DNA from: Flavobacteriales bacterium
GTDB taxonomy: Bacteria; Bacteroidota; Bacteroidia; Flavobacteriales_C; GCA-002722245
Direction of reading: 5' to 3'
Assembly (NCBI GenBank): GCA_046074525.1
Contig: JBJTOK010000079.1
Location: 9,894-73,893, forward strand
DNA length: 64,000 nucleotides
Made by a program: the position numbers and the translations under genes. Positions 4,410 to 56,153 of the stretch are shown piece by piece. The notes beneath the pieces were generated by a model. The model was given only the letters and a program-made list of their open reading frames with translations. It was not told the origin of the DNA and did not search any database. How positions within the stretch are numbered: the first letter of the stretch is position 1; every line of letters begins with the position of its first letter.

Positions 4410-4420
4410 ATAGAAGAAGT

Positions 4421-6373: not shown

Positions 6374-6386
6374 TGTTTATTAAGGT

Positions 6387-14815: not shown

Positions 14816-14872
14816 AAGTAAGCCCCGCTATGTTGCAGGGTAGGTTTATAAATCTAATTCAAACTAAATCAC

Positions 14873-20052: not shown

Positions 20053-20301
20053 TCCCTCTTGCGAGGCTTTATTTTACAGGTATTTCAGGATTGTGTGAAT
20101 GATATTGTACTGTTTGTGAATAATTGAATGCCACTTTTTTTGACCCCATGAGAACGATTGTGCTCCTGTTTGCGAATGATTTGTTCCAGTTGTACGACAT
20201 CTGCGAACGTAGCTTTGTGGGGAAGATTCTCGTGAGTCATTGTTTTCCGCATAAACACGACCCAAGAGAATGGGTATAGTAAATAACTAAAAACTAAAAG
20301 A

Positions 20302-25314: not shown

Positions 25315-28300
25315 AGATCACCGGCTGTGAATACGGTGTGTATGCAGCAGCAAATACAGGCGGTGTTCTGCAGTTGTATAAATGGAATATTTCGGCCACC
25401 GATGCTGCTATTTTTTCCGATAAAACTTCAGGCACTAAAATACTTTTGCAGGAATCCGCCATCGCTTCAGGAAAAGTGCAATTGCAAGGTGGAACCTTGC
25501 TTGCTACTGATAACGATTTCAATAACACGGCGCCGCAAATCCAGTTTGAATACAACTCCCGAGGTAACCTCACCGGCAATCGTTTTAAAAATGCAGTAAA
25601 CATTTCCGAAAAATCTGTTTTCCTCAACCAGATTGATCACACTCCGGTAAGCTCTATTAAACTTCCTGCGTATTATGAATTTATACCGCAATCGAAAAAA
25701 CCTTCACGTAATGTAATGTACAATGTGTTGAATTATGGTGTTACTGCGGGAACCCGCGATGCTATTCCTGCAGGAGATGCAACAACAGGAATTCAAAATG
25801 CACTCAATCAGGCGAAGAATGATGGTGGTGGAATTGTTTATCTTCCGCCGGGGCATTACAGAATCAATGGTTCTCTCACGATTCCCACAGGTGTGGAATT
25901 AAAAGGTTCGGTGGATATAGGGGAGTTCCCTTTGGGGCCTGGATCCATCCTTGAAATTTATGGAAACAAAGGAAATGAAAATGGAGCTTCTCCTGTGATT
26001 TTACAGCAGGGTAGCGGTTTACGTGGTGTGGTGTTCAATTATCCCGACCAGGTTTTTTGTACTGTACTTCCCAATGCGGTGTTGAAATTTCCTTATTCGG
26101 TTCAGGTGCAAGGCAGTGATGCCTATATCGTAAATGTTGGATTCCGTGCAGCTTACAAAGCAGTAGATTTATTTTCCTACAAAAGTGATCGCTTCTATCT
26201 CGATTTCCTTACGGGACATGTATTCAATGAAGGTGCTAAAGTGGGCGCCGCCTCTGCTGATGGTATAATCGCAAATATGCAGTTCAATACCATCGCTTAC
26301 AACTGCGGTGATGAATCGAAATTTGGCGGATGGCCTAATTCGCTTCGCTCGCCATGTTCGGGTGATGCTACTAAAAATCCTTACGACTACAACGCTAAAT
26401 ATCTCGACTTCCTTATCGTGGGCAATGCGCCGGATATCATGCTGTACAACGATTTTAATTATGATGCGAATCATGGCTTGATTTTGCAGGATGGTGCTTC
26501 GGGAACTGCCATCGGTTTAGGTTTGGATGGCGATCGTACCGGAATTTTAGTGGATGGAAATGCCAATTTCTCTTTCATCAATACACAGGATGTATCTCTT
26601 AATTATGATGCCTTGGGAGGTGAACAATCCAGCTATCTGAAAACGACTTCCAACTTCAATGCTGGTTCCATTAATCTCTTCAGTTGCGATTATTGGGGAC
26701 AAGCTACCAGCAGTGGTATTGTGATGGATGGCGCAGGAACAGTGAATCTGCAATCATCAAATTTTGAGAGTCCCGGCAGCCAGTCTTTTGCCCAAGTCAA
26801 TAACGGAACGTTGAATATCAACAACTCGGTAGTGAACCCAAAAGATCCTCTGGTGAACGGTACGCATCTGTCGGGTGTTAATATCGTGGGTTCCGATGTA
26901 ACTCCTTATACCATCAATACGAACTTGCTTGGCAATTACGATAACAATATAGGCACCGCAAAACCTTCGCCAACCAGTTCTCTCAGCAGGACAGGTTGGA
27001 TTGCTACATCGTCAAGGAATGTTAATTCGGGACGTGTTGCTCAAAATGGAATTGATGGAGATGCTAATACCAGCTGGAGCAGTGGCTGGCAAAACGATGG
27101 CGCAGCCATCTGGTACCAGGTAGATATGCTTGTGCCGCAGACTTTCAATGAAGTGATTCTGGATTACAGCGGAAGTCCGAACGACGGTCCTGCATCTTAT
27201 ACTTTCTCAGTATCCAATGATGGCGTTAACTGGACGCAGGTAGCCTCCGGCACAGGAAATAATATGATGACCATTATTTCCTTTCCTGAAACTACAGCAC
27301 GTTATATCCGCATGGATAAGCCTGCCAATGCAAGTAAAGCCAATTTCCTGGCGATTCATGAATTGTATGTATTCAATGTAAAAGCTGCCGCAGGCAATCT
27401 GGTGGCGGTGCCGATGAAAAATCCCTTGTACCACCAGTTCACATCGCCATTGTATGGTTCTGCGGGAACAGGAAATATGTACACTGCCGATCCTTCTGCA
27501 CACGTATGGGCCGATGGTCGTTTGTATGTTTATGCATCACACGATATGGAGCCAGCACAAGGGTGCGATAGAATGGATCGCTATCATGTTTTCTCTACCG
27601 ATGATATGACCAACTGGGTAGATCATGGTGAAATTCTCAGCGCGAGTCAGGTTTCCTGGGGGCGCGCTGAAGGTGGTTTCATGTGGGCACCTGATTGCGC
27701 ATACAATCCGGCCAATCAGACTTACTATTTTTATTATCCTCATCCAAGCGGTACCGATTGGGGTGCTACCTGGAAAATAGGCGTGGCTACTTCTAAGGAA
27801 CCTGCAGCTAATTTTACCGATCAGGGCTATATCACAGGAATGTCATCTCTCATTGATCCTTGCGTTTTTGTCGACGATGACGGTCAGCCTTATATTTATC
27901 AGGGTGGCGGTGGAACCTGTATGGGGGGTAAACTCGATAAAAATGACTGGACCAAATTGGATGGCGCCATGCAGCCTATGACGGGTTTGGTCGATTTTCA
28001 CGAAGCTACATGGGTACACAAATACAATGGAAAATATTATTTGTCGCACGCCGATAACCACGGCGTTGATGGCAATCAGCTGAAATATGCTGTGAGCAAC
28101 AGTCCGCTCGGACCATGGACCGACATGGGTGTGCTGATGTACGCCACGGGTTGCGATACGCATCATGGTTCAATTGTGGAATACAAAGGTCAGTGGTGGT
28201 CTTTCTATCACACCAGCAATTTCTCAGGCGAATACAACCTGCGTTCGGTATGTGCAGATAAGCTTTACTACAATAATGATGGTAGCATTCAACCAGTAAA

Positions 28301-29519
28301 CAACTGGGGTACTGCTTTCAAGAGCAATGTGGTGGCGGTTACCAACAACACTACAGATGTTGCTCTCACTGTGGAAGCCGAGGATTTCAATAATGGTGGT
28401 TCACATTATGGTTACTGGGATAAAACCGATGCCAATTCAGGAGGCAATAATTCCCGTTCAGGAGAAGGAGTGGATATTGAAACCCGTGGTAATGTGGTGG
28501 ATATAGGATGGATTGAGAATGGCGAATGGTTGAGGTATACGGTGAATGTTACCAAGGCAGGCTTGTACGATATCGATTTCACTGTGGCTGCAGGCAATAC
28601 GGGAGGAAAATTCCATTTGAGCGTGAATGGCACTAATTTATCGGGCGACCTAACTGTTCCTAATACAGGAGATTGGGGGAATTGGACTACTGTTACGGCT
28701 CTCAATATTCCTTTGCAGGCGGGCGAGCAGTACATTGATTTGCGTTTCAATGGCGGATTCAATCTGGATAAGTTTCAGTTCCGCAAATCAGCACCATACC
28801 AGGGCACGGCGTATAATGGTCCGCACAACGTTCCCGGAACTTTTGAAGCCGAAGATTATGACAATGGTGGAACAGGAGTGGCTTATTATGACAGCGATGT
28901 CGCCAACAACAGCGGTGCTTACAGAACAACAGAAGGCGTAGATCTGGAAACCTCCAACGGTAGTACGCACATCAGCTGGTCGAATAGTGGTGAGTGGACC
29001 AAGTACACTATTGTTGTGGCTACTGATGGCACTTATGAAGTGCAGATTCCTGTGTCTACGGGCAATGGCGCAGCAGGGACCTTGTCGCTCACTTTCGATG
29101 ATGTGTATACTGTACCTGTCGCCAGCATCAATACCGGCAACTGGAACACCTATCAATCACTTACGATCAAAGACATTCAGCTTACGGCCGGAACGCACGT
29201 AATGAAGCTGAATATTGGCGGAAACATCAATGTAGATCAATTCACTTTTACGAAAAGCATTACCACAGCAATGCCGGAAGCGACTGCGCAGCATCACATC
29301 AGCATTTATCCTAACCCTTCGGCCGATGGTATTTTTAATATCAAAGCCACGCAGCAGGGGCAGCTGATCATCAGTGATGTGGCAGGCAAAATGGTGCTGA
29401 GCGAAATAGTGGCTGAGCCGGGAAACATTGATTTGTCGGGCCGTGCGTCGGGTATTTATATTGCTACGTTTATTACCGGAGAGCAGACTTACAGGTTTAA
29501 GCTGATGGTGAATAAATAA
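25266..29519 (+). CDS. 5'-truncated composite glycoside hydrolase, possibly a pseudogene or gene fusion. It has a Pectate_lyase_3-type right-handed beta-helix (GH55-like exo-beta-1,3-glucanase architecture), a discoidin/CBM32-like domain, a GH43-like five-bladed propeller, two CBM6-like domains and a T9SS type-A CTD. The coding frame is open from 25209 (after a TGA) with no signal peptide. The ORF-track start is a TTG.
   Basis: The beta-helix start motif is YNVLNYGVTAGTRDA..DATTGIQNALNQAKNDGGGIVYLPPGHYRING. The discoidin block is NTSWSS...YIRMD. GH43 motifs are (ADPSAHVWADGRLYVYASHD, WAPDCAY, DPCVFVDDDG). Two modules of TVEAEDFNNGG...LDKFQF / TFEAEDYDNGG...VDQFTF are present. The Por tail is (ISIYPNPSADGIF...YRFKLMVNK). 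Confidence 0.6.
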   Translation: MYFDGSNGVGIMFTDMKITGCEYGVYAAANTGGVLQLYKWNISATDAAIFSDKTSGTKILLQESAIASGKVQLQGGTLLATDNDFNNTAPQIQFEYNSRGNLTGNRFKNAVNISEKSVFLNQIDHTPVSSIKLPAYYEFIPQSKKPSRNVMYNVLNYGVTAGTRDAIPAGDATTGIQNALNQAKNDGGGIVYLPPGHYRINGSLTIPTGVELKGSVDIGEFPLGPGSILEIYGNKGNENGASPVILQQGSGLRGVVFNYPDQVFCTVLPNAVLKFPYSVQVQGSDAYIVNVGFRAAYKAVDLFSYKSDRFYLDFLTGHVFNEGAKVGAASADGIIANMQFNTIAYNCGDESKFGGWPNSLRSPCSGDATKNPYDYNAKYLDFLIVGNAPDIMLYNDFNYDANHGLILQDGASGTAIGLGLDGDRTGILVDGNANFSFINTQDVSLNYDALGGEQSSYLKTTSNFNAGSINLFSCDYWGQATSSGIVMDGAGTVNLQSSNFESPGSQSFAQVNNGTLNINNSVVNPKDPLVNGTHLSGVNIVGSDVTPYTINTNLLGNYDNNIGTAKPSPTSSLSRTGWIATSSRNVNSGRVAQNGIDGDANTSWSSGWQNDGAAIWYQVDMLVPQTFNEVILDYSGSPNDGPASYTFSVSNDGVNWTQVASGTGNNMMTIISFPETTARYIRMDKPANASKANFLAIHELYVFNVKAAAGNLVAVPMKNPLYHQFTSPLYGSAGTGNMYTADPSAHVWADGRLYVYASHDMEPAQGCDRMDRYHVFSTDDMTNWVDHGEILSASQVSWGRAEGGFMWAPDCAYNPANQTYYFYYPHPSGTDWGATWKIGVATSKEPAANFTDQGYITGMSSLIDPCVFVDDDGQPYIYQGGGGTCMGGKLDKNDWTKLDGAMQPMTGLVDFHEATWVHKYNGKYYLSHADNHGVDGNQLKYAVSNSPLGPWTDMGVLMYATGCDTHHGSIVEYKGQWWSFYHTSNFSGEYNLRSVCADKLYYNNDGSIQPVNNWGTAFKSNVVAVTNNTTDVALTVEAEDFNNGGSHYGYWDKTDANSGGNNSRSGEGVDIETRGNVVDIGWIENGEWLRYTVNVTKAGLYDIDFTVAAGNTGGKFHLSVNGTNLSGDLTVPNTGDWGNWTTVTALNIPLQAGEQYIDLRFNGGFNLDKFQFRKSAPYQGTAYNGPHNVPGTFEAEDYDNGGTGVAYYDSDVANNSGAYRTTEGVDLETSNGSTHISWSNSGEWTKYTIVVATDGTYEVQIPVSTGNGAAGTLSLTFDDVYTVPVASINTGNWNTYQSLTIKDIQLTAGTHVMKLNIGGNINVDQFTFTKSITTAMPEATAQHHISIYPNPSADGIFNIKATQQGQLIISDVAGKMVLSEIVAEPGNIDLSGRASGIYIATFITGEQTYRFKLMVNK

Positions 29520-38943: not shown

Positions 38944-40545
38944 TTACTGCACCCATTTCTGTCCTGAAATCATCAATGCTTCCTGCACTGTGATTCTGGT
39001 GCCTTTGTTGTACGCGGTTACAAACGGACCAACAACTTTATTTTCAGTCTTCACCACTTCGCGGTGGTCACGGGCATCTTTGTAAACCGTAAATTCGCCT
39101 ACCACATACTTATGCCATCCTTCGTGCATCATGGTGTACACTTTTTCATTGATGTTGTTGTTCTGTTTGAAATACGCAACATCCACCTGTCTCTTGGTAG
39201 CGCAAATCTGAACACTGTAGTAGAGTCCCTGATTAGGATTGCTCGATCCAAAATCTCCTGAGCCAGCGCTGCCTGAAGAAGGAGATTTTTTAGTGTTGTC
39301 GGCTGTGTTGTTGTCCTTAATCACTTTTACAGAAGGAGTTTTATCATCTTTCTTAGGCTCTTTCTTTGGCGTTTGAGCTATAGGATCTTTCTTAGGTTCG
39401 TCTTTTTTGGGCTCATCCTTCTTTGGCTCATCCTTTTTGGGTTCGTCTTTCTTTGGTTCGTCTTTTTTAGTATCCACAATAGCAACAGGCTCTTCTGTGA
39501 TTTGATCCACCACAGTGATTTCGCTGTTGTTGAAAGCTATTTTTTTATTGGTGCCATCGCTTTCTTTCAAATAAGAGAAGAAACCTTCCACAGGGAATTT
39601 TCCTTTGGCATCACCAACATAAGTTATTTTGTATTTCACCCTGATTTCTTTTGAGGCAGGCATGGTCATCCAAAGGATTTTAACTTTGCCCTCCTGAAAA
39701 GAAAACACACCACCGAAAGCATCAACTTCTTCAGCAGTGAAGCCAGGAGGAAGGGTTTCCATGATTTTTGCAAAACCGGTAGTACTGCCTTTGTTGATCA
39801 CAAGATCAACCATGATAGAGCTGCCTTTCTTGATTTGTGTTCCCGATAAAATTCTTTTCACTTCAATACCATCAGCAGAAGCTACTGCATCATTTTGGTT
39901 GGTGGCAGTGTTAGAAGTTGCATTGTTTGTTGCAGTATTGGTTTGTGTTGAAGCATTGTTGTTGGTTGCTGTGTTTTGAGTTGTGCCTGTTGTGTTTTGG
40001 GTGTTGTTTTTTGCAGCACCGGTACCGGCGCTGTTGGTTGCAGTGCCTGTATTTGCAGCAGTACCTGTATTGTTTGCGGTATTTCCCGTGTTGGTTGGCG
40101 TCATGGCCACATCAGAAGGCGTACCAACAGTAATAATTTTTACTGGAGTGCTCGCTTCGTATTTTGTGCCTTGCAACACATAATGGAATTTTCCGGTGAG
40201 ATTGTAAGTGCCGTTCGTGCTAGGAAAACTTTTTACCTTGAATTTGATCTGGAATTGCGCTTCTGTAGGCAATGCCATCCAGATGATTTTCACCTGTTGC
40301 TGGGCAAAAGTGAAAGAACCTGATTTGCTGTCGATATTTTCTGCGGTGAATCCTACAGGTAGCTGCATCTGGAATTTAGCAAACTCCGTGATGCTCCCTT
40401 TTTTTATGTTTACCACAACTTCAAATGTTTCTCCCGGCTTGGCGGTTGCAGGCATCTGAGCATCTACGGTAACGGCATCTTCTGCAAAGTATCCCAGCAG
40501 GGATAAGAAGATAATGTTAATGTATACGAGTAGTCCTTTTATCAT
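38944..40545 (-). CDS. SPOR-domain (peptidoglycan-binding) protein with two N-terminal duplicated domains of about 130 aa each, an Asn/Thr-rich low-complexity linker and a (KKDEP)5 tandem repeat.
   Basis: The C-terminal SPOR pattern is YYSVQICATKRQVDVAYF...KYVVGEFTVYKDARDHREV. The two internal duplicated blocks are (..EFAKFQMQLPVGFTAENID.. / ..GFAKIMETLPPGFTAEEVD..). Confidence 0.7.
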   Translation of the reverse strand: MIKGLLVYINIIFLSLLGYFAEDAVTVDAQMPATAKPGETFEVVVNIKKGSITEFAKFQMQLPVGFTAENIDSKSGSFTFAQQQVKIIWMALPTEAQFQIKFKVKSFPSTNGTYNLTGKFHYVLQGTKYEASTPVKIITVGTPSDVAMTPTNTGNTANNTGTAANTGTATNSAGTGAAKNNTQNTTGTTQNTATNNNASTQTNTATNNATSNTATNQNDAVASADGIEVKRILSGTQIKKGSSIMVDLVINKGSTTGFAKIMETLPPGFTAEEVDAFGGVFSFQEGKVKILWMTMPASKEIRVKYKITYVGDAKGKFPVEGFFSYLKESDGTNKKIAFNNSEITVVDQITEEPVAIVDTKKDEPKKDEPKKDEPKKDEPKKDEPKKDPIAQTPKKEPKKDDKTPSVKVIKDNNTADNTKKSPSSGSAGSGDFGSSNPNQGLYYSVQICATKRQVDVAYFKQNNNINEKVYTMMHEGWHKYVVGEFTVYKDARDHREVVKTENKVVGPFVTAYNKGTRITVQEALMISGQKWVQ

Positions 40546-40725
40546 AAAAAGTATTCATCAATTGACACAAATCTATTTTAAATAGAAAGCGTCGGGGGAT
40601 GGGGCTACTCATTATTGCAAACACAGGCTTGTTAATAAGGGCTTGAAAATGTTGAAAAGATTCAGGGGGATTTCTTGCCTTGAATTAATTTGAAAAAAGA
40701 GAAAAGCTGGTGTGATTTTTCAGCG

Positions 40726-45741: not shown

Positions 45742-46708
45742 TTACTGTTGAGTCGCTCACTAAAGGTACTGCTGCCGTGTCAGCAGCAGGAGCAAATAAC
45801 TCTTCATACTGGTAAATACCGCTTTTTGGTAGTTTAATAGTATAGCTTGTTCCCGGACGCACGGTGAGTCGTTTTTCACGCAGCCACGGGTTGAGCGTTT
45901 TCAGAATTTTGTAATTGGAATTTTTTGAAAGCGCGTATCTCATAAGATCGGGAATGGTGGAATCCACTTTCACTGAATATACATCGTAAGGAGGATAACC
46001 GTCGATGTTTTCAGGATCATAGCCATAGTATTTAGGGTTATTGAAAATCTCCTTGTAGGAAAGGATTCGAAAAACATACCTGGATGTTTCGGTATTGAGT
46101 AACAAGTCGTAGTAGCTGTTTACCCCCTGTTCTTCCATCTTGCTTGCCAGTCCGCCCATCCCCATGTTGTATGAAGCGGCGGCAGCAGTATAAGATTTGA
46201 ATTTTCGGTAAGCCGATCGGAAATATTTGCAGGCGGCGTGTGTAGATTTTTCTACATCGTAGCGGTCGTCCACTTCTTCACGGATTTCCATTCCGTACTC
46301 TTTTCCGGTACGTTCCATGATTTGCCAGAACCCCGTTGCACCGGCCGGACTCACTACATTCACCAGTCCGCTTTCAATAATGGCTACATATTTCAAATCA
46401 TCAGGCAAACCGTATTGTTTCAGGATGGGTTCAATCACAGGGAACCATCTTTTGGCTCTTTTGAAATACATAATGGTTTCCGATTGCCAGTAGGCGTTTT
46501 TCAGTATCTCCCTGTCGAAACGTTCACGGATATCATCACTCTGGAAAGGTACAGGCTCTCCACAAAAATTGATATCGGGAGAGATTTTAAAGTCTTTGAA
46601 AATAATCGTGAAAGGATATTTTTCAGCCTCTCTGGAAAAGGTGAAAAGCTCAATAACAACAAAGAGAACAGCAACAGTGCTAAATGCTATGAGTCCCTTT
46701 TTTTTCAT
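45707..46708 (-). CDS. Lytic transglycosylase (SLT domain) protein.
   Basis: It has a signal/TM N-terminus. The SLT motif is [24 protein letters not shown], followed by ..AASYNMG. Confidence 0.8.
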
Positions 46709-47799
46709 TTGTTTTCCTTTGCTTTAGGTGGTCTTTTTACTCGTGTAAGGTAATAAAGAATGGTGAATATTATTACACAATACGTACCAAAAAGGATGGT
46801 GGTGGTGGTGTTCCACTCTTTCACAAAATGGATGATATACACCGACAGGAACATGGAAACCAATGATATAGCGCAGAATACCAGAGCCACTTCGCGATCA
46901 CTGAGCCCGGCATAGGACAAGTGATGTGTGGTGTGGTCCTTACCGCCAACGAACGGACTTTGTTTCTTCAGCAAGCGATTGATAGTTACCGTGGTGGTAT
47001 CAACAATAGGGAGGATAAATACAGTTACTGCTGCCAGTATTTTTCTTGAAAACTCAAGGGGTTCTCCATCTCGGCCCTGGGCATTCCAGAAGAAGAGAAT
47101 ACCAATTGCAGCCAGCAGCACACCAAGGAACTGACTCCCTGTATCACCCATATACATGCGTGACGGATTCCAGTTGAAATAAAGGAAGCCGAGCAATGCA
47201 GCTACCTGTCCCAGACAAATAATAAAGAAAATATTCCCGAAGTCGCCGCTTACTACAAAAAGTACCAGGGTAGTAAGACAAACGAAGATGGATACTGAGG
47301 TAGTGATTGCATCCATGTTATCGAGCATGTTAATAGAGTTCATCATGCCTATCACCCAAAAAATAGTGAGGGCGATGTTGACGATATCATTATCGAATAG
47401 AGTGATTTTTGTATTGGTGATCACCAGGATCACTGCACAAAGTACCTGTCCCAAAAACTTCAGAAGTGGCTTGGTGTTGTAAGCATCATCGGCCAGTCCT
47501 ATCATAAAGCCCAATGAAACGGCGATAAGAATTCCCAGTACTTGTGTGTCAATAAGATTGTGTTTGAATGCAGCCAGGATAAAGGAAAAGAGGAAGAGGA
47601 TATAAAAGGAAATACCTCCAAATGCCGGTTTCGATGTGCTGCCCCAGCGAATAATGGTTTCATCATTGTTACTGTTACTGCTGTTTCTAATTCCCAGCGT
47701 TTTGGCAAACTTTAAGAAAAGTCCGTTGATCAGTGCAGAAAAGCCTATCAAGACAATGAAGAAACAGATGTAAAAAAGCAGTTCGTTGATTTTAAGCAT
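46705..47799 (-). CDS. Glycosyltransferase family 4 polyprenol-phosphate sugar-1-phosphate transferase (WecA/MraY-like initiating transferase of the polysaccharide locus).
   Basis: It is a multi-TM protein. Motifs ..GLADD.. and NSINMLDNMDAIT (NxxNxxDGxDG-like) are present. Confidence 0.75.
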   Translation of the reverse strand: MLKINELLFYICFFIVLIGFSALINGLFLKFAKTLGIRNSSNSNNDETIIRWGSTSKPAFGGISFYILFLFSFILAAFKHNLIDTQVLGILIAVSLGFMIGLADDAYNTKPLLKFLGQVLCAVILVITNTKITLFDNDIVNIALTIFWVIGMMNSINMLDNMDAITTSVSIFVCLTTLVLFVVSGDFGNIFFIICLGQVAALLGFLYFNWNPSRMYMGDTGSQFLGVLLAAIGILFFWNAQGRDGEPLEFSRKILAAVTVFILPIVDTTTVTINRLLKKQSPFVGGKDHTTHHLSYAGLSDREVALVFCAISLVSMFLSVYIIHFVKEWNTTTTILFGTYCVIIFTILYYLTRVKRPPKAKENK

Positions 47800-47844: not shown

Positions 47845-48387
47845 TTAAAACAAACCATAAAAATGCTTGAGTGGTTTCCCGTTGAGGTCTTTCTCGGAAA
47901 GAATAGGATTGCTGATCCCCCAATCAATACCTAATGCAGGGTCGTTCCACAAAATAGAACAGTCGGCTTCCTTATTGTAAAAATTGGTGCATTTGTAATG
48001 GAAAATGGTATTGTCTTCAAGGGTGAGGAAGCCATGGGCAAAACCTTCGGGAACCCAGAGCATGCGCTGATTTTCCTCCGAGAGAAGCACTTTTACATGT
48101 TTGCCATAGGTAGGGGAATCTTTGCGGAGATCTACAGATATATCCAGCACAGAACCCTGAATGGCTTTCACCAGTTTCCCTTGAGTATAGGGCGGTTTCT
48201 GGAAATGGAGTCCGCGCAAAATGCCTTTGGAGGATTTGGAAAGGTTATCCTGTACAAATTTAGCGGTGATGTTGTGCTCGTGAAATTTTTTCTCGTTGTA
48301 GCTTTCGTAAAAATATCCCCTCGGATCGTAAAAGACTGCCGGTTCAACGATCAGTAAATCCGGGATTTCTGTTGGTATGACTTTCAT
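47845..48387 (-). CDS. rfbC: dTDP-4-dehydrorhamnose 3,5-epimerase.
   Basis: The cupin epimerase motifs are (YDPRGYFYESY..., RGLHFQ, MLWVPEGFAHGF). The length is 180 aa. Confidence 0.9.
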   Translation of the reverse strand: MKVIPTEIPDLLIVEPAVFYDPRGYFYESYNEKKFHEHNITAKFVQDNLSKSSKGILRGLHFQKPPYTQGKLVKAIQGSVLDISVDLRKDSPTYGKHVKVLLSEENQRMLWVPEGFAHGFLTLEDNTIFHYKCTNFYNKEADCSILWNDPALGIDWGISNPILSEKDLNGKPLKHFYGLF

Positions 48388-48404
48388 TGTATAAGTCCTA
48401 TGGC

Positions 48405-50846
48405 CTAGCCAAATAATTTTGAAAAAAAGTTTGACTTCTTCTTTTTCTTGGTTCTGGTTGACTCTTCATAGTAGCCATAGCCGTAGCCATAACCATAACC
48501 ATAACCGTAGCCATAACCGTAGCCATAACCATAACCGTAACCATAACCACCTTTGCTGGCCCTGTTTCCGGCACCATTAAGGATGACAGAGAGGTTGGTG
48601 ATTTTATTCTCCTCTTTCAGGTGGTTGATGTTTTGCAGGAAGATTTTCTTCGATACATTGGCACGCAGGATATATATCGGATAATCGGCCTTCTGGATGA
48701 TAGGGAAGGCATCAGTTACGATACCTACCGGCGGATTATCAATTACGATTACATCGTATGTTTTTTTAAGCTCGGCCAGGATAATGTCCATCTCCTTGCT
48801 GATAATAAGCTCTGAAGGGTTTGGAGGAATAGGTCCGGCAGTAATAAAGTGCAGGTTTTCCAAGCTGCTTCGCTGAATAGATTCTTCAAGGTTCGATTTC
48901 TTGATCAGCAAGGTGCTCATGCCAATTCTGTTTTCAGCGTTAAAACCAATGTGGGTTTTAGGTTTACGCATATCCAAATCGAGAATGATTACCTTCTTTC
49001 CTGAAAAAGCAATGATACCACCAAGGTTAATGGCGACGAAGGTTTTACCTTCACCGCTGACTGTTGAGGTTACGGCTATGACTTTTGAATCGTCGCTCTT
49101 TCTAAGGAACTGAAGGTTTGAACGGATAGAGCGGAAGGCCTCCGTCATCAATGATTTCGGATTTTTGTCTACCAGCAACTGAGAAATCGGAATAGACTCT
49201 TTGTATTCGGGAATCATCCCCAGGATAACCACCTGGTTGGTATATTTAACTATGTCGACAATAGCCGAAACGGTATTGTGCATAAGGTAGCGTACCACTA
49301 TAATACCAATGCTTATGGCAGCCCCTATGGAAATGAAAAGAATGTAGATGAGCCTTGTCTGCGGTTCAATTGGTGTTTCGTTGCTGTAAGCATATTCAAG
49401 AATGTCGTTGTTAGAAACAAAGCCGGCCTTTACCATCTCAAACTCCGATTTTTTCTGGAGGAGTTTGGTATAGTAATCCTGACTGATTTCATACATTCTT
49501 TCTATCTGATTGATTTCAGAGTCTTTTATTTTCTTGTTTATCACATCGGTTACGACGATCTGATTGTTTTTCTTGGAAATTTTGAGCTCCAGTTTATCAA
49601 GCTCCTGCTGCATTTCACTTATAGCAATATCAATACTTTCCAGCAATTCTTTCCTGTTGAGCTGTATCTTATAATCGAGCTCCCTTATCGGACCGCTATT
49701 TTCGGTGTACATGTAACGCAACTCCTTGCGCTGGGTAATCATGAGTTGGTTTTGCTGTATAATTGGCAGTAAGGCATGGGCTACAGGAGAGGTGAGCAAT
49801 GGCGCATAGATGTAATCGCTGGCCTGAAGTTTCCCCAGTTTTTGCTTGTAATCTTTAAGTGCCTGCAACTCGAAAGTCATTAACTGGAACTTATCCTCAT
49901 CAATATTCTGGTTATTGGCAGGTGGATTGAAAAGCAGGGGATTGAATTTGCTTGCACCTGATTCATCCTTGTCAGCATATGGTTCAAGGATCTTAGCGTA
50001 GTCATTGATTTTTTCATTGATGAGCAGTAACTGATCATTAGTGAAGTTGATCATCTGATTGGCGCTTTCCGCCTTCTTTTCAACATTGTATTTGAGGAAT
50101 TCCCTGGATATGGCATTGGCAATATCGGCACATTTGAGAGGGTTGTTGGAAATGAATTCCACTTCCAGTGTTTTTGCCTGTTCGTTGATTACATTGATCA
50201 TCAGCTGCGACAAACATTCATTAACGATATGATCCTCTTCGTGCAGGATAAAGTACCTTGGCGACGCTTCTCCTTCTCCCTGTAATTTAACGTACTGGGC
50301 CTGTGAAATGGTGATTTTAAGCTCCATTTCAGGGAAGGTTGTCCAGGTATTGATAGAAATGACATGTTCGTGTGCGACCTCACCGAGATAATAGCTTACC
50401 TGTACTTTTTCATCTGGGAGGAATTTTACATAAATAGGAACCTCATAGATAGACTGGTTTTTTATCTGATAGCTTACTTTATAAGGAGAAGTTTTGTATT
50501 CCTCAAAATTCAGAAATGCTCCTTCCGAAAAATAGGAAATATCCAGAGGTAGATTTTTCAATGCTCTTGTAATGAGAGACTTCGACCTCATGAGTTCCAC
50601 TTCCCCTGCGATAGCCATCTCGTAGATGTTCTCAAACTGCATGATTTTATTCATGTTGTTGTTCTCACCGATTTTCAAAATGGTTTTCGCCTGGAATACA
50701 GGCTGGGTATAACGATTGTAAATAAAGGCAAAGGTATAGCCCAGAGACAGTAAAACGATGACCCACACGATAGAACCCTTTGTTATTTTCAGCGCGAGGG
50801 CTAAATCAAAGTCGTCATTCAGCAGGGCTATCTTTTTTCTTTCCAT
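48405..50846 (-). CDS. Polysaccharide co-polymerase / BY-family tyrosine autokinase (Wzc/EpsB-like) with an unusually long C-terminal (GY)12-Y tail.
   Basis: It has a TM N-terminus, a Wzz-like periplasmic coiled-coil region and a Walker A VTSTVSGEGKTFVAINLG. A Walker B-like VIVIDNPP and the C-terminal tyrosine cluster GGYGYGYGYGYGYGYGYGYGYGYGYYEE are also present. Confidence 0.85.
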   Translation of the reverse strand: MERKKIALLNDDFDLALALKITKGSIVWVIVLLSLGYTFAFIYNRYTQPVFQAKTILKIGENNNMNKIMQFENIYEMAIAGEVELMRSKSLITRALKNLPLDISYFSEGAFLNFEEYKTSPYKVSYQIKNQSIYEVPIYVKFLPDEKVQVSYYLGEVAHEHVISINTWTTFPEMELKITISQAQYVKLQGEGEASPRYFILHEEDHIVNECLSQLMINVINEQAKTLEVEFISNNPLKCADIANAISREFLKYNVEKKAESANQMINFTNDQLLLINEKINDYAKILEPYADKDESGASKFNPLLFNPPANNQNIDEDKFQLMTFELQALKDYKQKLGKLQASDYIYAPLLTSPVAHALLPIIQQNQLMITQRKELRYMYTENSGPIRELDYKIQLNRKELLESIDIAISEMQQELDKLELKISKKNNQIVVTDVINKKIKDSEINQIERMYEISQDYYTKLLQKKSEFEMVKAGFVSNNDILEYAYSNETPIEPQTRLIYILFISIGAAISIGIIVVRYLMHNTVSAIVDIVKYTNQVVILGMIPEYKESIPISQLLVDKNPKSLMTEAFRSIRSNLQFLRKSDDSKVIAVTSTVSGEGKTFVAINLGGIIAFSGKKVIILDLDMRKPKTHIGFNAENRIGMSTLLIKKSNLEESIQRSSLENLHFITAGPIPPNPSELIISKEMDIILAELKKTYDVIVIDNPPVGIVTDAFPIIQKADYPIYILRANVSKKIFLQNINHLKEENKITNLSVILNGAGNRASKGGYGYGYGYGYGYGYGYGYGYGYGYGYYEESTRTKKKKKSNFFSKLFG
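48468..48549 (-). repeat. Coding hexanucleotide microsatellite (ggttatggctac-type units) encoding (GY)12Y at the BY-kinase C-terminus.
   Basis: A near-perfect 6-nt periodic repeat of about 80 nt is read directly from the sequence. Confidence 0.8.
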
Positions 50847-50849
50847 CTG

Positions 50850-51677
50850 TTAAGGCTTGGTAAGGACTGAATACAACACGGCAATACTCAGGATTGAAGT
50901 AATCAAACCGGTAAATGAGGTAATATCCGAGGTAATAGTGTATGGGTAGTTGATTACCGGCTCAATGTACACAATATCATTGGCCTGCATAACAATGTCG
51001 GCGTCCTTGAGTCCGTCAATTTTTGATAAATCAACCAGGTAGATATCTGGTTTTTTGAGGTCGCCTCTGATAATCTTTATTTTATTGGCGTAGTTCATTG
51101 CACCGCCACCGCCATTGCTGGATGCGGCATTGGAACTTCCTGTTCCTCCGGCAACACCTCCGGCTTTGGCAAGTACTTCAAAGAGAGTGGTGTTTTCATT
51201 TTCAAGGGTGACAATATTGGCTGAAACACCTCCCCGGAAGAGATAAATTCTCTTGTTTGTGATTTCCAGTATTACAAAGGGATTGACGAAATATTGCTTA
51301 AATTTTTCTTCCAGTAATTCCTCGGCCTGTTTCACGGTGAGGCCAAGAACGTCAAGTTCACCCAATACGGGCATCTTGATTTTTCCATTGGAGCGTACTT
51401 TAAAGGTGGTGGCTCCTGCTGCCCCCGCTCCACCGGCTGAACCTTCTGCATAGCCTGAAATAGTGGCCATCTTGAAACCATCATTGGTGTATAAACTAAA
51501 GCTGATAATGTCGTTGACGGCTATTTTATACGGTTCAACCTTTACCGAATCCGGGAACTTTGCATAAGGGTAATCCGCAGGGATTTTGAGCATCCTGCTG
51601 GGATTTAAGGTGGCGCATGATGAAAGAGCCACCACAGCCATTACGATAAGTATATAAGGTTTTAATAAGTATTTCAT
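50850..51677 (-). CDS. Polysaccharide export outer-membrane protein (Wza-like, Poly_export/SLBB).
   Basis: It has a lipoprotein-type signal (..VALSSCAT). A Gly/Ala-rich linker is present. Its position is 3 nt upstream of the BY-kinase gene. Confidence 0.75.
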   Translation of the reverse strand: MKYLLKPYILIVMAVVALSSCATLNPSRMLKIPADYPYAKFPDSVKVEPYKIAVNDIISFSLYTNDGFKMATISGYAEGSAGGAGAAGATTFKVRSNGKIKMPVLGELDVLGLTVKQAEELLEEKFKQYFVNPFVILEITNKRIYLFRGGVSANIVTLENENTTLFEVLAKAGGVAGGTGSSNAASSNGGGGAMNYANKIKIIRGDLKKPDIYLVDLSKIDGLKDADIVMQANDIVYIEPVINYPYTITSDITSFTGLITSILSIAVLYSVLTKP

Positions 51678-51678
51678 T

Positions 51679-52866
51679 TCAGCTATTCAGTAAAGTGCTA
51701 TACAGTTTATCCATATCATTCACCAGGCGGGTATAATGGAATTTTTCCCTCACATTTTCCCAGCCTTCTTTTTGCATCTGACCGCGAAGGACTTCATCTT
51801 CAATGAGTTTCAGTAAGTTGGCGGCATAGGCCTTGATATCACCTACTTCAGATAATAAACCTGTTTTGTTGTGGATCACCACATTTTCAATTCCGCCTAC
51901 CTTCGTGCTTACCACCGGATTGTTGCCGGCCTGCGCTTCAATCAAACTTACAGGTGTGCCTTCATTTAAAGAACTCAATGCAATGATATCTACTCCTGCA
52001 TTAACGACGTCAACGTCTTTAATCCATGATGTAAACGTAAGACTACATTTGGAATTTTCAAAATTTTCGGTACAAATAGAAATGTTCAGCTCCTTCGCCA
52101 AAGCTTCTGTTTTTAAGCGGTCTTCACCATCCCCCACAATGAAGCCTCGTATCTTTTTGCTGGTCTTGTCACTCACCTCTTTCCAGGCACGAATAAAAAG
52201 TTCATGGTTCTTCACCGGAACGATGCGTCCTACAATACCAACGGCAATCTCATCGTCAGCAATGTTGTATTGCTTGCGGAAGGCAATTCTCTTGCCTTCT
52301 ATATTTTCCTGGAAACGACTGAGGTCGAAACCCAGTGGAATTACTTCCAGTTTTTCCGGACGGCAAATGCGGTGTATTGTTCCAAGTTCGTACTTCTGCT
52401 TTTCGCTGATGGCAATGATCCTCGTGCTTTTTCCGGCCAGGTTGCGTTCAATTCTTTTGAAGAGCGAGGTTTTGGTTTTGTTGAAATAGGAGTGGAATAC
52501 GTGGCCGTGGAAGGTGTGTACAATTACGGGAACTCCTGAATTGTAAGCAGCCAGTCGCCCAATGGTTCCTGCCTTTGCAGCATGGGTATGAACGATGTCC
52601 GGCTTGAAATCCTTAATAATCGCTTTGATTTTTTTATACGTATTGTAGTCGTTCATCGGATTGATGGAACGTTTCATTTCGGGGATGATAATAGGATTAA
52701 GTCCAAGATCGTGAAGGATATGCATGCTGCTTTCCTCATGATCTTCTTTTTCACCACCAATGAGCATGGTTTCATATTCGGGCGGCATGTACTTGCTTAG
52801 ATAGGCTGCGTTGTACGTAGGTCCCCCAAGGTTAAATCTGTTTATAATCCGTAAAATTCGTGGCAT
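51679..52866 (-). CDS. GT4 (group 1) glycosyltransferase.
   Basis: It is 395 aa with a GT-B fold pattern. It has the N-terminal IINRFNLGGPT motif and the C-terminal E..G....EA motif region. Confidence 0.75.
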   Translation of the reverse strand: MPRILRIINRFNLGGPTYNAAYLSKYMPPEYETMLIGGEKEDHEESSMHILHDLGLNPIIIPEMKRSINPMNDYNTYKKIKAIIKDFKPDIVHTHAAKAGTIGRLAAYNSGVPVIVHTFHGHVFHSYFNKTKTSLFKRIERNLAGKSTRIIAISEKQKYELGTIHRICRPEKLEVIPLGFDLSRFQENIEGKRIAFRKQYNIADDEIAVGIVGRIVPVKNHELFIRAWKEVSDKTSKKIRGFIVGDGEDRLKTEALAKELNISICTENFENSKCSLTFTSWIKDVDVVNAGVDIIALSSLNEGTPVSLIEAQAGNNPVVSTKVGGIENVVIHNKTGLLSEVGDIKAYAANLLKLIEDEVLRGQMQKEGWENVREKFHYTRLVNDMDKLYSTLLNS

Positions 52867-52896
52867 TAGTGCGCTTCAAGTATTCGGCAAAAGTAA

Positions 52897-54783
52897 TCAA
52901 TTTATCCACTTTTTCCACCAGTATTGAAAAACGATGAGGGCCCAGATGTTTCCTGTGGCGTCCTGAGGGTTGGAGCTGTTGAGTTTTGCTTTGAGCTGTT
53001 CAATCTTTTCAGGGTTGAAAATACCTTGCTTCTCGATGAAGTCTTTTGAAAGCAGATCGTTGTGTATCATCCACTTGAGGTCGGTGCGGAACCACGACAA
53101 GAGTGGTACTTCAAAGCCGTGCTTCGGCCGCTTGTATAATCTCTCGGGGAGGATGTCTTTAAATGTGTCCTGCAAAATGCGCTTGCGGTGAGTCGGACAT
53201 ATTTTATAGTCTTCGGGCAGGGAGAAAACAAAGTTGACTACCTCATGATCGAGGAAAGGGACGCGTACCTCCAGACTGTTGGCCATGGACATCCTGTCGA
53301 CTTTCGTGAGCATGTCGCCTTCCAGCACCATATTCATGTCGGTAAGCAGTACTTCGTTGAAATCTCCATCCGGAGTAAAGGCTTTTAATAATTCAGATTT
53401 CGCATTTTTATATTCAGAACCATCTATGCTCTGCTTCAACATTTCCTTTGCAGCGTGTTCATTCATGAGCCCTGCCCAGCTCCAATACCTTTCCGATGCG
53501 GTCAACTTTGAAGCCGAAGCGAATTTATCCAGCTGTCGCATCTTGTTGCCAATGGAACTGTTGCGCGATTGCGGCATCATTTTCCACAGCCAGCCCATAT
53601 TATTGATCACCGCATTTTTGGCCGAAGGATGGCGCATGAGGTATTCGGCCTTGTGCTTGTTGTAACCCGAAAACAATTCATCGGCACCATCGCCGGAGAG
53701 GGCAACTGTTACTTTCTTCCGTGTTTCGCGACTCAATATATATACCGCCAGGGCTGAAGAATCGGCGAAAGGTTCGTCGGTGTAATCCAGCACTTCGTAA
53801 AGCACATCAAACAAATCTTTGTTGGTAAGCTTGAAAACAGTGTGATGGGTATTGAATTTTTTGGCGACTTCCTGGGCGTAAGCTGTTTCGTCAAATAAAG
53901 GTTCGTCCTGGTACCCAATAGAAAAAGTGTTCAGGTTTTTGGTTTGCTTACTTGCCAGCGCTGTAATAATAGAGGAGTCGGTACCGCCACTTAAAAAAGC
54001 TCCTAGCGGCACATCAGCGATCATTCTTCTTTCTACCGATTTTTCCAGCAACTCCACTAGTTTTTTCTGGGCATCGGCGTAGGATAAAGATGTTTTGTAT
54101 TCGCGGTTGTAGGGAATGGTATAATAGGCTTTCGACTCGATTTTGTTATCAGAGATTACAGCGAAATGTCCTGGCTTCAGTTTATATGCATTCTTGAAAA
54201 TGCACTGGTTGCCGGGAATATAATTGAATTGCAGATATTGGTAAACAACAGTGAAGTTGATCTCCTTTTTAATATCAAAGGCCATAATGGATTTCAACTC
54301 GCTGGCAAAAAGGATCTTCTGATCATCCTGATAGATATAAAGTGGCTTGATGCCAAAGCGATCGCGGGCAATGAAAACAGAATTATCGCGCTTATCCAAA
54401 ATAGCAAAGGCAAAAAATCCAACAAACTTTTCAATGCATCTTTCTTTTTCCCTGCGGTACATTTCCAGTAAAACCTCGGTATCGGAATGCGTACGGAATT
54501 TTACACCTTCTTTTTCCAGCGGAGCGCGCAGCTCTTTGAAGTTGTAGATTTCACCGTTGAAGACGAGTATATGATGGCCATCTTCATGAATGAAAGGTTG
54601 ACTTGCGGCGGAGCTGGTGTCCATAATAGACAAACGGGCGTGGCCCACGCCGATGTTCTGGTGAACAAAGGTGCCGTTACTGTCGGGACCTCTTTTAGTC
54701 AGACAAGATACCGACGCTTTCAATTGCGTGATCTCGTTTTGACTGAGATCTGTTTTGCTGATTATTCCGCTAATGCCGCACAT
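52897..54783 (-). CDS. asnB: Asparagine synthase (glutamine-hydrolysing).
   Basis: It has the N-terminal MCGISGII Ntn-amidotransferase nucleophile and the SGGTDSS PP-loop. The length is 628 aa. Confidence 0.9.
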   Translation of the reverse strand: MCGISGIISKTDLSQNEITQLKASVSCLTKRGPDSNGTFVHQNIGVGHARLSIMDTSSAASQPFIHEDGHHILVFNGEIYNFKELRAPLEKEGVKFRTHSDTEVLLEMYRREKERCIEKFVGFFAFAILDKRDNSVFIARDRFGIKPLYIYQDDQKILFASELKSIMAFDIKKEINFTVVYQYLQFNYIPGNQCIFKNAYKLKPGHFAVISDNKIESKAYYTIPYNREYKTSLSYADAQKKLVELLEKSVERRMIADVPLGAFLSGGTDSSIITALASKQTKNLNTFSIGYQDEPLFDETAYAQEVAKKFNTHHTVFKLTNKDLFDVLYEVLDYTDEPFADSSALAVYILSRETRKKVTVALSGDGADELFSGYNKHKAEYLMRHPSAKNAVINNMGWLWKMMPQSRNSSIGNKMRQLDKFASASKLTASERYWSWAGLMNEHAAKEMLKQSIDGSEYKNAKSELLKAFTPDGDFNEVLLTDMNMVLEGDMLTKVDRMSMANSLEVRVPFLDHEVVNFVFSLPEDYKICPTHRKRILQDTFKDILPERLYKRPKHGFEVPLLSWFRTDLKWMIHNDLLSKDFIEKQGIFNPEKIEQLKAKLNSSNPQDATGNIWALIVFQYWWKKWIN

Positions 54784-54801
54784 GGGGCAAATATACTTTT
54801 T

Positions 54802-54905
54802 TGATTGTAGATTTTAGATTGATTGAAGATTTCAGATTTACGATTGTAGATTGAATTCTTTAAGCAATCTAAAATCGTAAATCTAAAATCGTAAATCTAA
54901 AATCC
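54802..54905. repeat. Array of short direct and inverted repeats (aatctaaaatcgta x3 on the right; cgattgtagatt(t) x2 on the left, mutually complementary). It lies in the fabF-asnB spacer and overlaps the last three fabF codons.
   Basis: It is read directly. There is a 19-bp imperfect stem (agatttacgattgtagatt / aatctaaaatcgtaaatct) plus 14-bp period direct repeats. Confidence 0.5.
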
Positions 54906-56153
54906 TTCATACTTCTTAAACAGCGAAGCGGCGATATGGCCGCCAAAACCAAACGTATTGCTCATCGCATAGGTCACGGTTTTGTGCTCGGCCTTGCCTA
55001 AAGTGAGGTTGAATTTATCGGCATACAACGGTTCCGGCTCATCGGTGTTGATGGTTGGGGGGATAATATTTTCCCTTGTTGCCATGATACATGCAATGCC
55101 TTCTATTGCCCCGGCAGCGCCCAGCAGGTGGCCCGTCATGGATTTGGTAGCGCTGACAGAGAATTTTTTCGAAGTACCGAACAATCTTTCCACTGCACGC
55201 AATTCGCTTACATCGCCTTGTGGTGTGGAAGTGGCGTGCAGATTGATGTAATCGATTTGATCAGCAGTAATACCTGCTTCATTCATTGCTTCCAGCATGC
55301 CGAGGTAAGCGCCTTCACCTTCGGGGTGCGTACCGGTGAGATGGTAAGCATCGGCAGTCATACCACCGCCAACAATTTCAGCCAATATCGGAGCACCGCG
55401 CTTGATGGCGTGGTCATAGCTTTCCAAAATCACAGCGCCGGCACCTTCACCCATTACAAATCCGTCTCGTTTTATATCAAATGGTCGACAAGCCTTTTGT
55501 GGATTTTCGTTGAATTGAGACAACGCTTTTGCAGCACTAAAGCCACCAACGGCACTTTCGCAAATTGGCGCTTCCGATCCGCCGGTAATAATCATATCGG
55601 CTTTTCCCCAGCGGATGTGGTTGAAAGAGTCTATGATAGCAGTGTTGGATGTAGCACAAGCCGATACAGCGGTGAAATTTACACCTCGCAAACCATATTT
55701 AATAGAGATAATGCCTGATGCGATATCTACAATCATTTTAGGAATGAGGAAAGGGGAGAAGCGCGGAGTGCCATCGCCTTTGGCATATTCTTTCACTTGT
55801 TCTTCAAAGAAGCCAATACCGCCGTTACCACTTCCCCAAATCACACCAATGCGGTTTTTGTTGAGTTTTTCAAAATCGATTTGTGCATGTTTGATAGCTT
55901 CTTCGGTGGCAATCAAAGCATATTGCGTGAATAGGTCGTAGCGACTCGCTTCTTTTTTATCGATGAAATCAAGCGGATTGAAATTTTTCAATTCGCAGGC
56001 AAAACGTGTTTTGAACTTGGATGCATCAAACTTGGTGATCGGACCGGCGCCGCTTACTCCGTTTTTCAGGTTGGTCCAGAAATCATTCACGTTGTTTCCA
56101 ATTGGCGTCAATGCGCCAACTCCCGTAACTACTACTCTTTTTAAATGACTCAT
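54897..56153 (-). CDS. fabF: 3-oxoacyl-[acyl-carrier-protein] synthase II.
   Basis: The N-terminus is RVVVTGVGALTPIGN, and the active-site Cys region is VSACATS. The HxxxGH and GH motifs are present. The length is 418 aa. Confidence 0.9.
   Translation of the reverse strand: MSHLKRVVVTGVGALTPIGNNVNDFWTNLKNGVSGAGPITKFDASKFKTRFACELKNFNPLDFIDKKEASRYDLFTQYALIATEEAIKHAQIDFEKLNKNRIGVIWGSGNGGIGFFEEQVKEYAKGDGTPRFSPFLIPKMIVDIASGIISIKYGLRGVNFTAVSACATSNTAIIDSFNHIRWGKADMIITGGSEAPICESAVGGFSAAKALSQFNENPQKACRPFDIKRDGFVMGEGAGAVILESYDHAIKRGAPILAEIVGGGMTADAYHLTGTHPEGEGAYLGMLEAMNEAGITADQIDYINLHATSTPQGDVSELRAVERLFGTSKKFSVSATKSMTGHLLGAAGAIEGIACIMATRENIIPPTINTDEPEPLYADKFNLTLGKAEHKTVTYAMSNTFGFGGHIAASLFKKYEGF

Follow-up and report, generated by a model that had tools for sequence, protein, structure and literature searches.

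Is a run of Gly-Tyr codons near the end of a polysaccharide kinase gene a microsatellite that switches rapidly between lengths, or is it a repeat maintained for the protein it encodes? The question is raised by a gene that encodes a tyrosine kinase of the bacterial type (BY-kinase) at 48405..50846, on the minus strand, of a 64,000-nt stretch of DNA from a Flavobacteriales bacterium (GenBank contig JBJTOK010000079.1, positions 9,894 to 73,893). This whole stretch is referred to here as the window, and all coordinates are counted from its first letter. An initial annotation had described the repeat as an exceptionally long tyrosine cluster encoded by a hexanucleotide microsatellite, in which slippage could vary the number of phosphorylatable tyrosines between cells or strains. 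The analyses reported here make it quite probable that the tract is the tyrosine cluster (Y-cluster) of a BY-kinase of the Wzc type, encoded in a small Bacteroidota locus for polysaccharide assembly and export, and, jointly with this, that it represents a clade-typical, selected protein repeat that is changed by the occasional gain or loss of blocks.

The gene encodes a protein of 813 aa, for which the open reading frame (ORF), Pfam, NCBIfam and structure matches point to a Wzc-type BY-kinase fused to a polysaccharide co-polymerase. Pfam placed a Wzz domain at aa 12-99, GNVR at aa 447-520 and AAA_31/CbiA at aa 587-762. The NCBIfam model TIGR01007 ("polysaccharide biosynthesis tyrosine autokinase") matched with 166.8 bits (cut-off 108), whereas the Wzc and Etk equivalog models remained far below their cut-offs (205.8 vs 1068 and 163.8 vs 1248, respectively); the protein is therefore a member of the family and not an orthologue of either Wzc or Etk. 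The top matches among solved structures were those of E. coli Wzc (9r62/7nhr, E=3e-42), and this alignment is in register at the Walker A, A' and B motifs, at the ExxRxxR motif and at the start of the tyrosine tail. Pfam, TIGR01007 and the Wzc structure alignment thus agree with the initial annotation that the host protein is a BY-kinase, and the aligned start of the tail upholds its assignment of the Gly-Tyr tract to the Y-cluster.

The Walker and oligomerisation motifs of this family were located on the minus strand, and their conservation was judged over 17 homologues (alignment A1). Walker A, or the P-loop, is STVSGEGKT (aa 594-602, 49041..49067), which aligns to Wzc GVSPSIG(K540M)T and is invariant from S594 to T602. 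A motif scan identified Walker A' as IILDLDMR (aa 620-627, 48966..48989; aligned to Wzc VLLIDCDMR), with D623, D625 and R627 invariant, and Walker B as IVIDNPP (aa 700-706, 48729..48749; aligned to Wzc VLIDTPP), with D703, P705 and P706 invariant. The same scan found the oligomerisation motif ExxRxxR, which lies on helix alpha2 in this family, as EAFRSIR (aa 569-575, 49122..49142), where E569, R572 and R575 are invariant; the Wzc counterparts of these residues are E508, R511 and R514, and the motif itself is defined in PMC9800525. Two transmembrane helices were predicted, the first at aa ~24-44 (50715..50777, minus strand; Kyte-Doolittle 19-residue window above 1.8) and the second after GNVR at aa ~497-522 (49281..49358, minus strand; Kyte-Doolittle peak 2.68), which aligns to the second transmembrane helix of Wzc. 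These hydrophobic segments, at aa 24-44 and 497-522, fit a two-pass membrane topology. No obvious patch rich in Arg and Lys, such as the RK cluster that P-type kinases have upstream of Walker A, was seen by inspection of aa 523-560, for which no alignment-based test was made. An AlphaFold2 model of aa 553-813 gave a confident P-loop core, while aa 760-813 had a predicted local distance difference test (pLDDT) score below 50 and no secondary structure; the tail is therefore predicted to be disordered.

The Y-cluster occupies 48468-48551 on the minus strand (aa 766-793), where the plus strand reads as repeated CCATAA/CCGTAG units. According to the codon table, K765 is followed by G766, by (GY)13 from G767 to Y792 and by Y793, and the tract thus extends over 48468-48548 without G766 or 48468-48551 with it. 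There are 14 Tyr within aa 768-793, and the Tyr run begins 7 residues past ...VILNGAG. Tandem Repeats Finder (TRF) reported this repeat at 48475-48549 with a period of 6, 12.5 copies and 81% matches, as well as a second solution with a period of 18 and 82% matches, and no other repeat in the 64-kb window matched its copy number. A GY run of such length is beyond chance origin. Codon table and TRF therefore both place a Gly-Tyr repeat where it had been claimed, on the minus strand within ORF 48405..50846. The composition given earlier, (GY)12Y with 13 Tyr, has to be corrected to (GY)13Y with 14 Tyr. Moreover, the Y-cluster is not the C-terminus as had been claimed, since it is followed by another 20 residues, EESTRTKKKKKSNFFSKLFG (48408-48467), and the stop codon.

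Whether such a tail is unusual was examined in two samples of relatives. The first consisted of 75 related loci from genome and metagenome scans and the second of 98 full-length representatives at 50% identity, which were searched with the kinase core alone, so that tail composition could not bias the matches. In the first sample the median was 11 Tyr (range 6-19), with at least 14 Tyr in 10 of 75 loci, and the longest pure (GY)n had a median of 6 and a maximum of 17 units, the latter in locus L004. The second sample showed a median of 8 Tyr (interquartile range 7-10, range 4-16), at least 14 Tyr in 4 of 98 representatives, and a longest pure (GY)n of at most 5 units. Among the tails of these ~170 relatives, which range overall from 4 to 19 Tyr, the Tyr number of the window lies at about the 87th-96th percentile. 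The uninterrupted (GY)13 is rarer than the Tyr number itself, being exceeded only by the (GY)17 of L004. Within the nearest subclade (kinase domains at least 80% identical to that of the window) tails carry 10-14 Tyr, the window having the largest number; it exceeds L081, the nearest relative, with 87% identity in the kinase domain, by 3 GY units. The closest relatives in the metagenome scan, L081 and L086, are 74-77% identical.

The number and positions of Y-cluster tyrosines vary across the BY-kinase family (PMC9800525), with 6 Tyr in the tail of E. coli K-12 Wzc (PMC9800525) and 6 Tyr in the Y-cluster of Porphyromonas gingivalis Ptk1 (PMC8863745). The description of the window's tail as exceptionally long consequently holds in comparison with these model kinases, but not within the clade, where the medians are 8 and 11 Tyr and individual tails reach 19. 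Judged from both samples, alternating Gly-Tyr with many tyrosines is the normal layout of the clade; YYEE comes next, then residues rich in Lys, and the protein closes with a short amphipathic segment. The tail of the window is a long variant of this layout.

The extension that follows the Y-cluster (aa 794-813, 48408..48467, minus strand) is acidic at its start, then Lys-rich, and has an amphipathic end, an architecture that is conserved in relatives. In most of ~180 relatives the extension is built in the same way: two or three acidic residues and a spacer lead into a segment rich in Lys/Arg, and a short hydrophobic-basic end closes it. The median length is 20 aa; the first 6 aa carry a net charge of -1.8 and the remaining residues one of +4.5. 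The window's extension closes with …KKKKKSNFFSKLFG, which resembles the membrane-targeting sequence of MinD. This sequence is KGFLKRLFGG in E. coli MinD (PMC5471200) and forms an amphipathic helix (PMC8155659). Comparable ends are found in relatives (KGFFAKLFGG, RFLKRLFKG and GLLAKLFGRL, next to KSNFFSKLFG in the window), and the BY-kinase domain belongs to the same MinD/ParA-like group of P-loop proteins (Pfam, NCBIfam). The helical hydrophobic moment of the window's end is 0.48, equal to that of MinD KGFLKRLFGG. Among 182 relatives, the helical moment of the last 14 aa exceeded that of shuffled sequences (mean z 0.50, Wilcoxon p=1.5e-9) while beta-type moments fell below shuffles; since the relatives' sequences are related to each other, these p-values overstate independence. 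The strict pattern ΦΦxxΦΦ was found in 34 of 74 relatives, compared with 15.5% of control ORFs. Some relatives stop just past YYEE and have no amphipathic end. The AlphaFold2 model contains no helix in the MinD-like end, where its pLDDT is below 50 and it is uninformative on the helix idea; the MinD sequence, too, is known to fold only on the membrane. Literature searches found nothing specific on an amphipathic or membrane-targeting C-terminus in BY-kinases.

Should this end be a membrane-binding element, (GY)n would serve as a tether in addition to being a substrate. A stronger version of this idea is that (GY)n is mainly a spacer that flexibly links the kinase core to an amphipathic helix bound to the membrane; its length would be under selection, and many of the tyrosines would have no regulatory role. 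This would account for the internal position of the tract ahead of a conserved basic, MinD-like end, for the predicted disorder of the entire tail, and for relatives in which the alternation is interrupted by changes from Tyr to His, Phe, Ser or Asn. It accounts less well for the retention of Tyr at nearly every second position, as a pure spacer would be expected to drift to a mixture of Gly, Ser and Asn, for the alignment of the tract start with the Wzc Y-cluster, and for the relatives that lack the amphipathic end altogether. A tether role and a substrate role can also coexist, which makes the spacer idea compatible with a selected Y-cluster; as an explanation on its own, it is considered unlikely.

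The proposal of a hypermutable microsatellite depends first of all on the purity of the DNA repeat. Only GGT and GGC are used for Gly and only TAT and TAC for Tyr, in an imperfect repeat with periods of 6, 12 and 18 nt. With a standing for GGTTAT, b for GGTTAC, c for GGCTAC and d for GGCTAT, the units follow one another as a b a a c a c a a a c d c. Perfect repetition extends over at most 20 nt at period 6, equivalent to 3.3 hexamer copies, and 32 nt at period 12. When Gly and Tyr codons were shuffled within the tract, the number of identical neighbouring units was no higher than expected (3 observed vs 2.8 expected, p=0.57), and the longest perfect tracts did not stand out either (period 12, p=0.11). 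Since GGN-TAY fixes 4 of 6 bases, the 81% periodicity is about that imposed by the amino-acid repeat; by arithmetic from the observed codon frequencies, random codon choice within GGN-TAY would give ~80-84%. What had been called a near-perfect ggttatggctac repeat is therefore an imperfect one in which codon order matches that of shuffles, and the periodicity of the DNA follows for the most part from the repetition of amino acids.

Codon order does carry a trace of how the tracts may have grown. In the window, TAT tends to follow GGT, and TAC tends to follow GGC (Fisher p=0.03). Across the tracts of L001-L086, units two apart were identical more often than expected by chance, both over all runs (99 vs 70.7 expected) and over 35 independent groups (42 vs 28.7 expected, P=0.002), and among these groups units three apart showed a weaker excess (P=0.04). 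The restriction to GGT and GGC and the codon pairing in the window are weak signs that its units share ancestry; the pairing and the family-wide excess two units apart indicate block duplications, and the family pattern suggests that tracts grew by past duplication of 12- and 18-nt blocks rather than of single hexamers. Two further candidate signals were rejected. An apparent avoidance of identical neighbours over 71 runs (71 vs 86.6, P=0.006), which would have hinted at selection against slippage, was lost in the 35 groups (31 vs 34, P=0.29). The absence of GGA and GGG, taken as a sign of recent expansion, had P~0.001 relative to gene-wide Gly usage and ~0.05 relative to Gly-Tyr dipeptides elsewhere in the window, and is weak evidence because GGA is already rare before Tyr.

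Comparison of close relatives provides a more direct view of repeat turnover. Tyr number and cluster length were equal in 14 of the 17 pairs with kinase domains at least 90% identical, and all three unequal pairs involve the same locus, L084. No repeat-number change was found inside any of seven 90%-identity clusters, which showed point substitutions only. L002 and L003 share 92% protein identity and differ in about half of their tract codons, yet their tracts have the same length. Two strain trios behaved differently. In L085/L089/L090, which come from three samples and are 99.8-99.9% identical over 2427 nt, there were zero differences in the tract. The orthologous loci L082/L083/L084, from three marine metagenomes and with 99.6-99.7% DNA identity over 1700 nt, differ in that L084 carries one extra GGCTAT unit relative to L082 and L083 and that a perfect (GGTTAC)6 in L082 stands in place of mixed codons in L083 and L084. 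Gly and Tyr codon differences in this second trio, which are clustered synonymous changes, amounted to 0 of 64 outside the tract vs 5 of 22 inside (p=0.0008). As the differences lie nearly all in the tract, the tract can turn over quickly where its DNA is purer, and the contrast with L085/L089/L090 suggests slippage that depends on purity.

Repeat length, which the initial annotation had suggested could vary between cells or strains, thus varied by one unit in one trio of related strains and was identical in the other. That slippage can vary the number of tyrosines is in keeping with the differences in unit number among relatives (4-19 Tyr, and one more unit in L084); the high frequency implied for it is not, given that 14 of 17 close pairs are equal. 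The idea of a hypermutable switch is not supported, given perfect tracts of at most 3.3 copies, seven unchanged clusters and an invariant trio. As read from these sequences, turnover of the tract is slow with length conserved and is not hypermutation of the contingency type. Conservation of length among close relatives therefore points to a slowly evolving, selected protein repeat and not to a phase-variable microsatellite.

Several arguments could still be made for slippage that generates subpopulations differing in phosphorylatable tyrosines and thereby tunes polysaccharide chain length or export. With a 6-nt unit, every unit change stays in frame, and a graded effect on the protein is alone conceivable. 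Four perfect TAAATT copies are sufficient for recurrent 6-bp deletions under phage selection in Acinetobacter baumannii gtr76 (PMC9247103), and the cycle model of BY-kinases predicts that Y-cluster capacity affects timing and product size (PMC9800525). The trio L082-L084, with its one-unit difference and its concentration of changes in the tract, can be cited in the same sense. These arguments are opposed by the shortness of the perfect tract at either period, by the lack of homogenisation in codon order and by the constancy of length among close relatives. Moreover, the (GY)17 tract of L004 uses all four Gly codons in mixed order, which fits conservation at the protein level better than recent slippage. 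Literature searches found nothing specific on GY-repeat tails or on slippage in BY-kinase genes, the Akkermansia and A. baumannii matches being other genes. Hypermutability is an improbable explanation for the tract. It is very improbable that tract length is an assembly or sequencing artefact from a collapsed or expanded repeat: although repeats are prone to assembly error and the only other contig with the kinase and rfbC in the collections, a Logan contig, may come from the same data, that contig was built independently and is 100% identical over 8442 nt, the imperfect 81-nt tract is easily spanned by single reads, the frame is intact with the conserved C-terminal peptide in frame after the tract, and similar or longer tracts occur in relatives.

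The reading of the tract as a clade-typical, selected Y-cluster has to be weighed against a number of observations. L082-L084 show that the tract can be a hot spot at the strain level, and the purity of the L083 and L084 tracts is close to that of the window (longest perfect period-6 tract of 20-21 nt vs 20 nt); indels may therefore be modestly more frequent than usual in the species of the window, and a polymorphism of plus or minus one unit is plausible in that species. The relatives are metagenome assemblies, in which consensus or assembly noise within a repeat could mimic or hide variation. Phosphorylation of the tail tyrosines in this clade is presumed from homology only. Lastly, the phosphatase expected of such a system was not encountered: no CxGNxCRS motif of low-molecular-weight protein tyrosine phosphatases (LMW-PTP) occurs within the 64-kb window, and a Pfam scan of 31 ORFs, the kinase among them, detected neither a PHP nor an LMW-PTP domain, with three giant ORFs, the asnB-like gene and uvrA outside that scan. 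A cognate phosphatase would have to be encoded elsewhere.

In terms of mechanism, Wzc octamers undergo trans-phosphorylation and dissociate at a threshold of ~4 phosphotyrosines (PMC9800525). By analogy, we infer a similar ring cycle for the kinase of the window. The Y-cluster would be the flexible tail on which the kinase phosphorylates itself. If the protein behaves like its E. coli homologue Wzc, its cytoplasmic P-loop domains would assemble through ExxRxxR into an octameric ring, in which each subunit would pass tail tyrosines into the active site of its neighbour. The phosphate charge that builds up would then break the ring, and a phosphatase would reset it. Such a cycle of assembly and disassembly may gate polymerisation and export and thereby shape polymer length; additional tyrosines would raise phosphate capacity and could alter the timing of the cycle, and to that extent the tuning proposed in the initial annotation would agree with the model. 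Over evolutionary time, the tract has probably grown and shrunk by blocks of 6, 12 or 18 nt, through slippage or unequal recombination.

A more far-reaching proposal, put forward here tentatively and with more doubt than confidence, combines the substrate and tether roles. The tail of the clade could be an expanded (GY)n, with up to 19 Tyr, set between the kinase core and a MinD-like membrane helix that pins the substrate tail at the membrane. Phosphorylation could release or reposition this tether; alternatively, the ~112 Gly-Tyr "stickers" per octamer could drive a clustering of export machines that is reversible by phosphorylation. With the occasional gain or loss of units, lineages would come to differ in how long the tether is and how much phosphate it can take up. 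A review from the Ghose laboratory (PMC9800525) considers it possible that Y-clusters enter a gel-like, phase-separated state, and an architecture of core, (GY)n and amphipathic tail was not found described in the literature searched.

Current models of BY-kinases are built on enzymes that have 3-6 tyrosines in the tail and dissociate once about four phosphates are attached. Here, a large uncultured Bacteroidota clade is seen to carry routinely 8-19 Tyr in a Gly-Tyr repeat, followed by a conserved MinD-like peptide. If the number of tyrosines sets the timing of the cycle, the natural length variants represent a test series for Y-cluster capacity against chain length. The periodicity of the DNA offers no evidence for phase variation and belongs to a normal selected protein repeat; the clade-wide expansion of the GY tail and its MinD-like end are the parts most worth pursuing.

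The neighbours of the kinase gene, all on the minus strand, are consistent with polysaccharide assembly and export. A Wza-like polysaccharide export protein is encoded in the same operon at 50850..51677 (Pfam Poly_export, E=8e-14), its gene ending 4 nt upstream of the kinase. At 47845..48387, 17 nt downstream of the kinase, lies rfbC, encoding dTDP-4-dehydrorhamnose 3,5-epimerase (PF00908 on the identical contig), and at 46705..47799 a gene for an initiating glycosyl-phosphate transferase of family 4 (WecA/MraY-like; Pfam Glycos_transf_4, E=1.4e-28). Further upstream are genes for a GT4/GT1-type glycosyltransferase at 51679..52866 (Pfam Glycos_transf_1 and Glyco_transf_4) and, as another member of this string of polysaccharide genes, an asnB-like gene at 52897-54783. 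The order wza-BYK-rfbC is kept in the relatives L089-L092. A scan of 48300-55000 for promoters and terminators gave counts no higher than those of shuffled sequences. The 113-nt spacer at 54784-54896, upstream of the string asnB-GT-wza-kinase on the minus strand, consists almost wholly of short tandem repeats, namely a perfect 14-mer, AATCTAAAATCGTA, in 2.8 copies and an 18-mer in 2.7 copies, with cores of the type AATCTA(A/C)AATC. Within this spacer, the motif TATATTTG stands directly before the ATG and matches TAnnTTTG, which we take to be the Bacteroidetes -7 promoter consensus. The spacer may be the regulatory region of the polysaccharide operon.

Elsewhere in the window, other repeats and large genes were observed. 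Three very large ORFs follow one another at 14858-19975, 20287-25314 and 25209-29519. The first of them, of 1705 aa, contains at 18703-19258 (plus strand) a 285-nt unit repeated twice with 78% matches, which is probably a duplicated domain of ~95 aa. A 15/30-nt tandem repeat, ATCTTTCTTGGGCTC, is present in 5.4 copies at 39385-39468 within ORF 38944-40554 (minus strand, no Pfam match); its predicted product is a short repeated peptide of charged residues, approximately EPKKD. Three ORFs in a row at 1687-6376 (minus strand), with lengths of 348, 588 and 651 aa, had no Pfam match at E≤1e-5; they adjoin genes for GH16 glycoside hydrolases, one of which has a sorting domain of the type IX secretion system (T9SS). 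T9SS sorting domains in proteins encoded outside the polysaccharide locus, together with the taxonomy of the relatives, place the organism in Bacteroidota.

Among known systems, the closest counterpart is Wzc of E. coli (K-12 and K30), a P-type BY-kinase and polysaccharide co-polymerase of class 2a (PCP-2a; PDB 3LA6, 7NHR, 9R62). It shares with the kinase of the window the fused N-terminal Wzz-type periplasmic domain, two transmembrane helices, ExxRxxR, a P-loop kinase domain that resembles MinD and contains the Walker A, A' and B motifs, an adjoining Wza-type exporter and a flexible Tyr-rich tail directly after the ...ILN motif. The two proteins have low full-length identity, and only region 442-778 aligns well. 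The tail of K-12 Wzc has 6 Tyr in an irregular YxxYxYYxYxY arrangement and ends 5 residues past the last Tyr, whereas that of the window alternates strictly between Gly and Tyr, with 14 Tyr, and has an acidic/basic/amphipathic extension of 20 aa. In addition, a motif search of the window found no wzb-like phosphatase near the kinase, unlike the situation for E. coli Wzc.

Within the same phylum, the literature searched yielded a single BY-kinase that had been studied by experiment, P. gingivalis Ptk1. Ptk1 is needed for exopolysaccharide and capsule (PMC8863745). Compared by description, it likewise combines the Walker A, A' and B motifs and a Y-cluster in one polypeptide chain. It differs in having 6 Tyr, an RK cluster and a PHP phosphatase gene, php1, immediately downstream (PMC8863745), while the kinase of the window has 14 Tyr and is followed by rfbC, with no PHP phosphatase among the ORFs scanned.

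Tyrosines at regular spacing have been described in Streptococcus pneumoniae CpsD (Y215/Y218/Y221) and, at every second residue, in A. baumannii Wzc (Y712/714/716/718/720/722) (PMC9800525), so that tails in which Tyr recurs periodically have precedents. These tails differ from that of the window in that they have only 3-6 Tyr and that a MinD-like C-terminal peptide is reported for neither; CpsD is also split (F-type). E. coli MinD, in turn, is a P-loop ATPase from the superfamily to which the kinase of the window belongs, and its very last residues form a basic amphipathic peptide that the end of the kinase resembles. Unlike MinD, the kinase is anchored by two transmembrane helices, and a membrane-targeting sequence would thus be unneeded for its localisation.

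Contingency loci of Haemophilus, Neisseria and Campylobacter are similar to the present locus in that a short tandem repeat lies in a surface-polysaccharide gene and its unit number varies between lineages. Such loci have long perfect tracts that vary within clonal populations, usually with a shift in reading frame or promoter spacing. The tract of the window, by contrast, is imperfect, in frame and mostly stable in length among close relatives.

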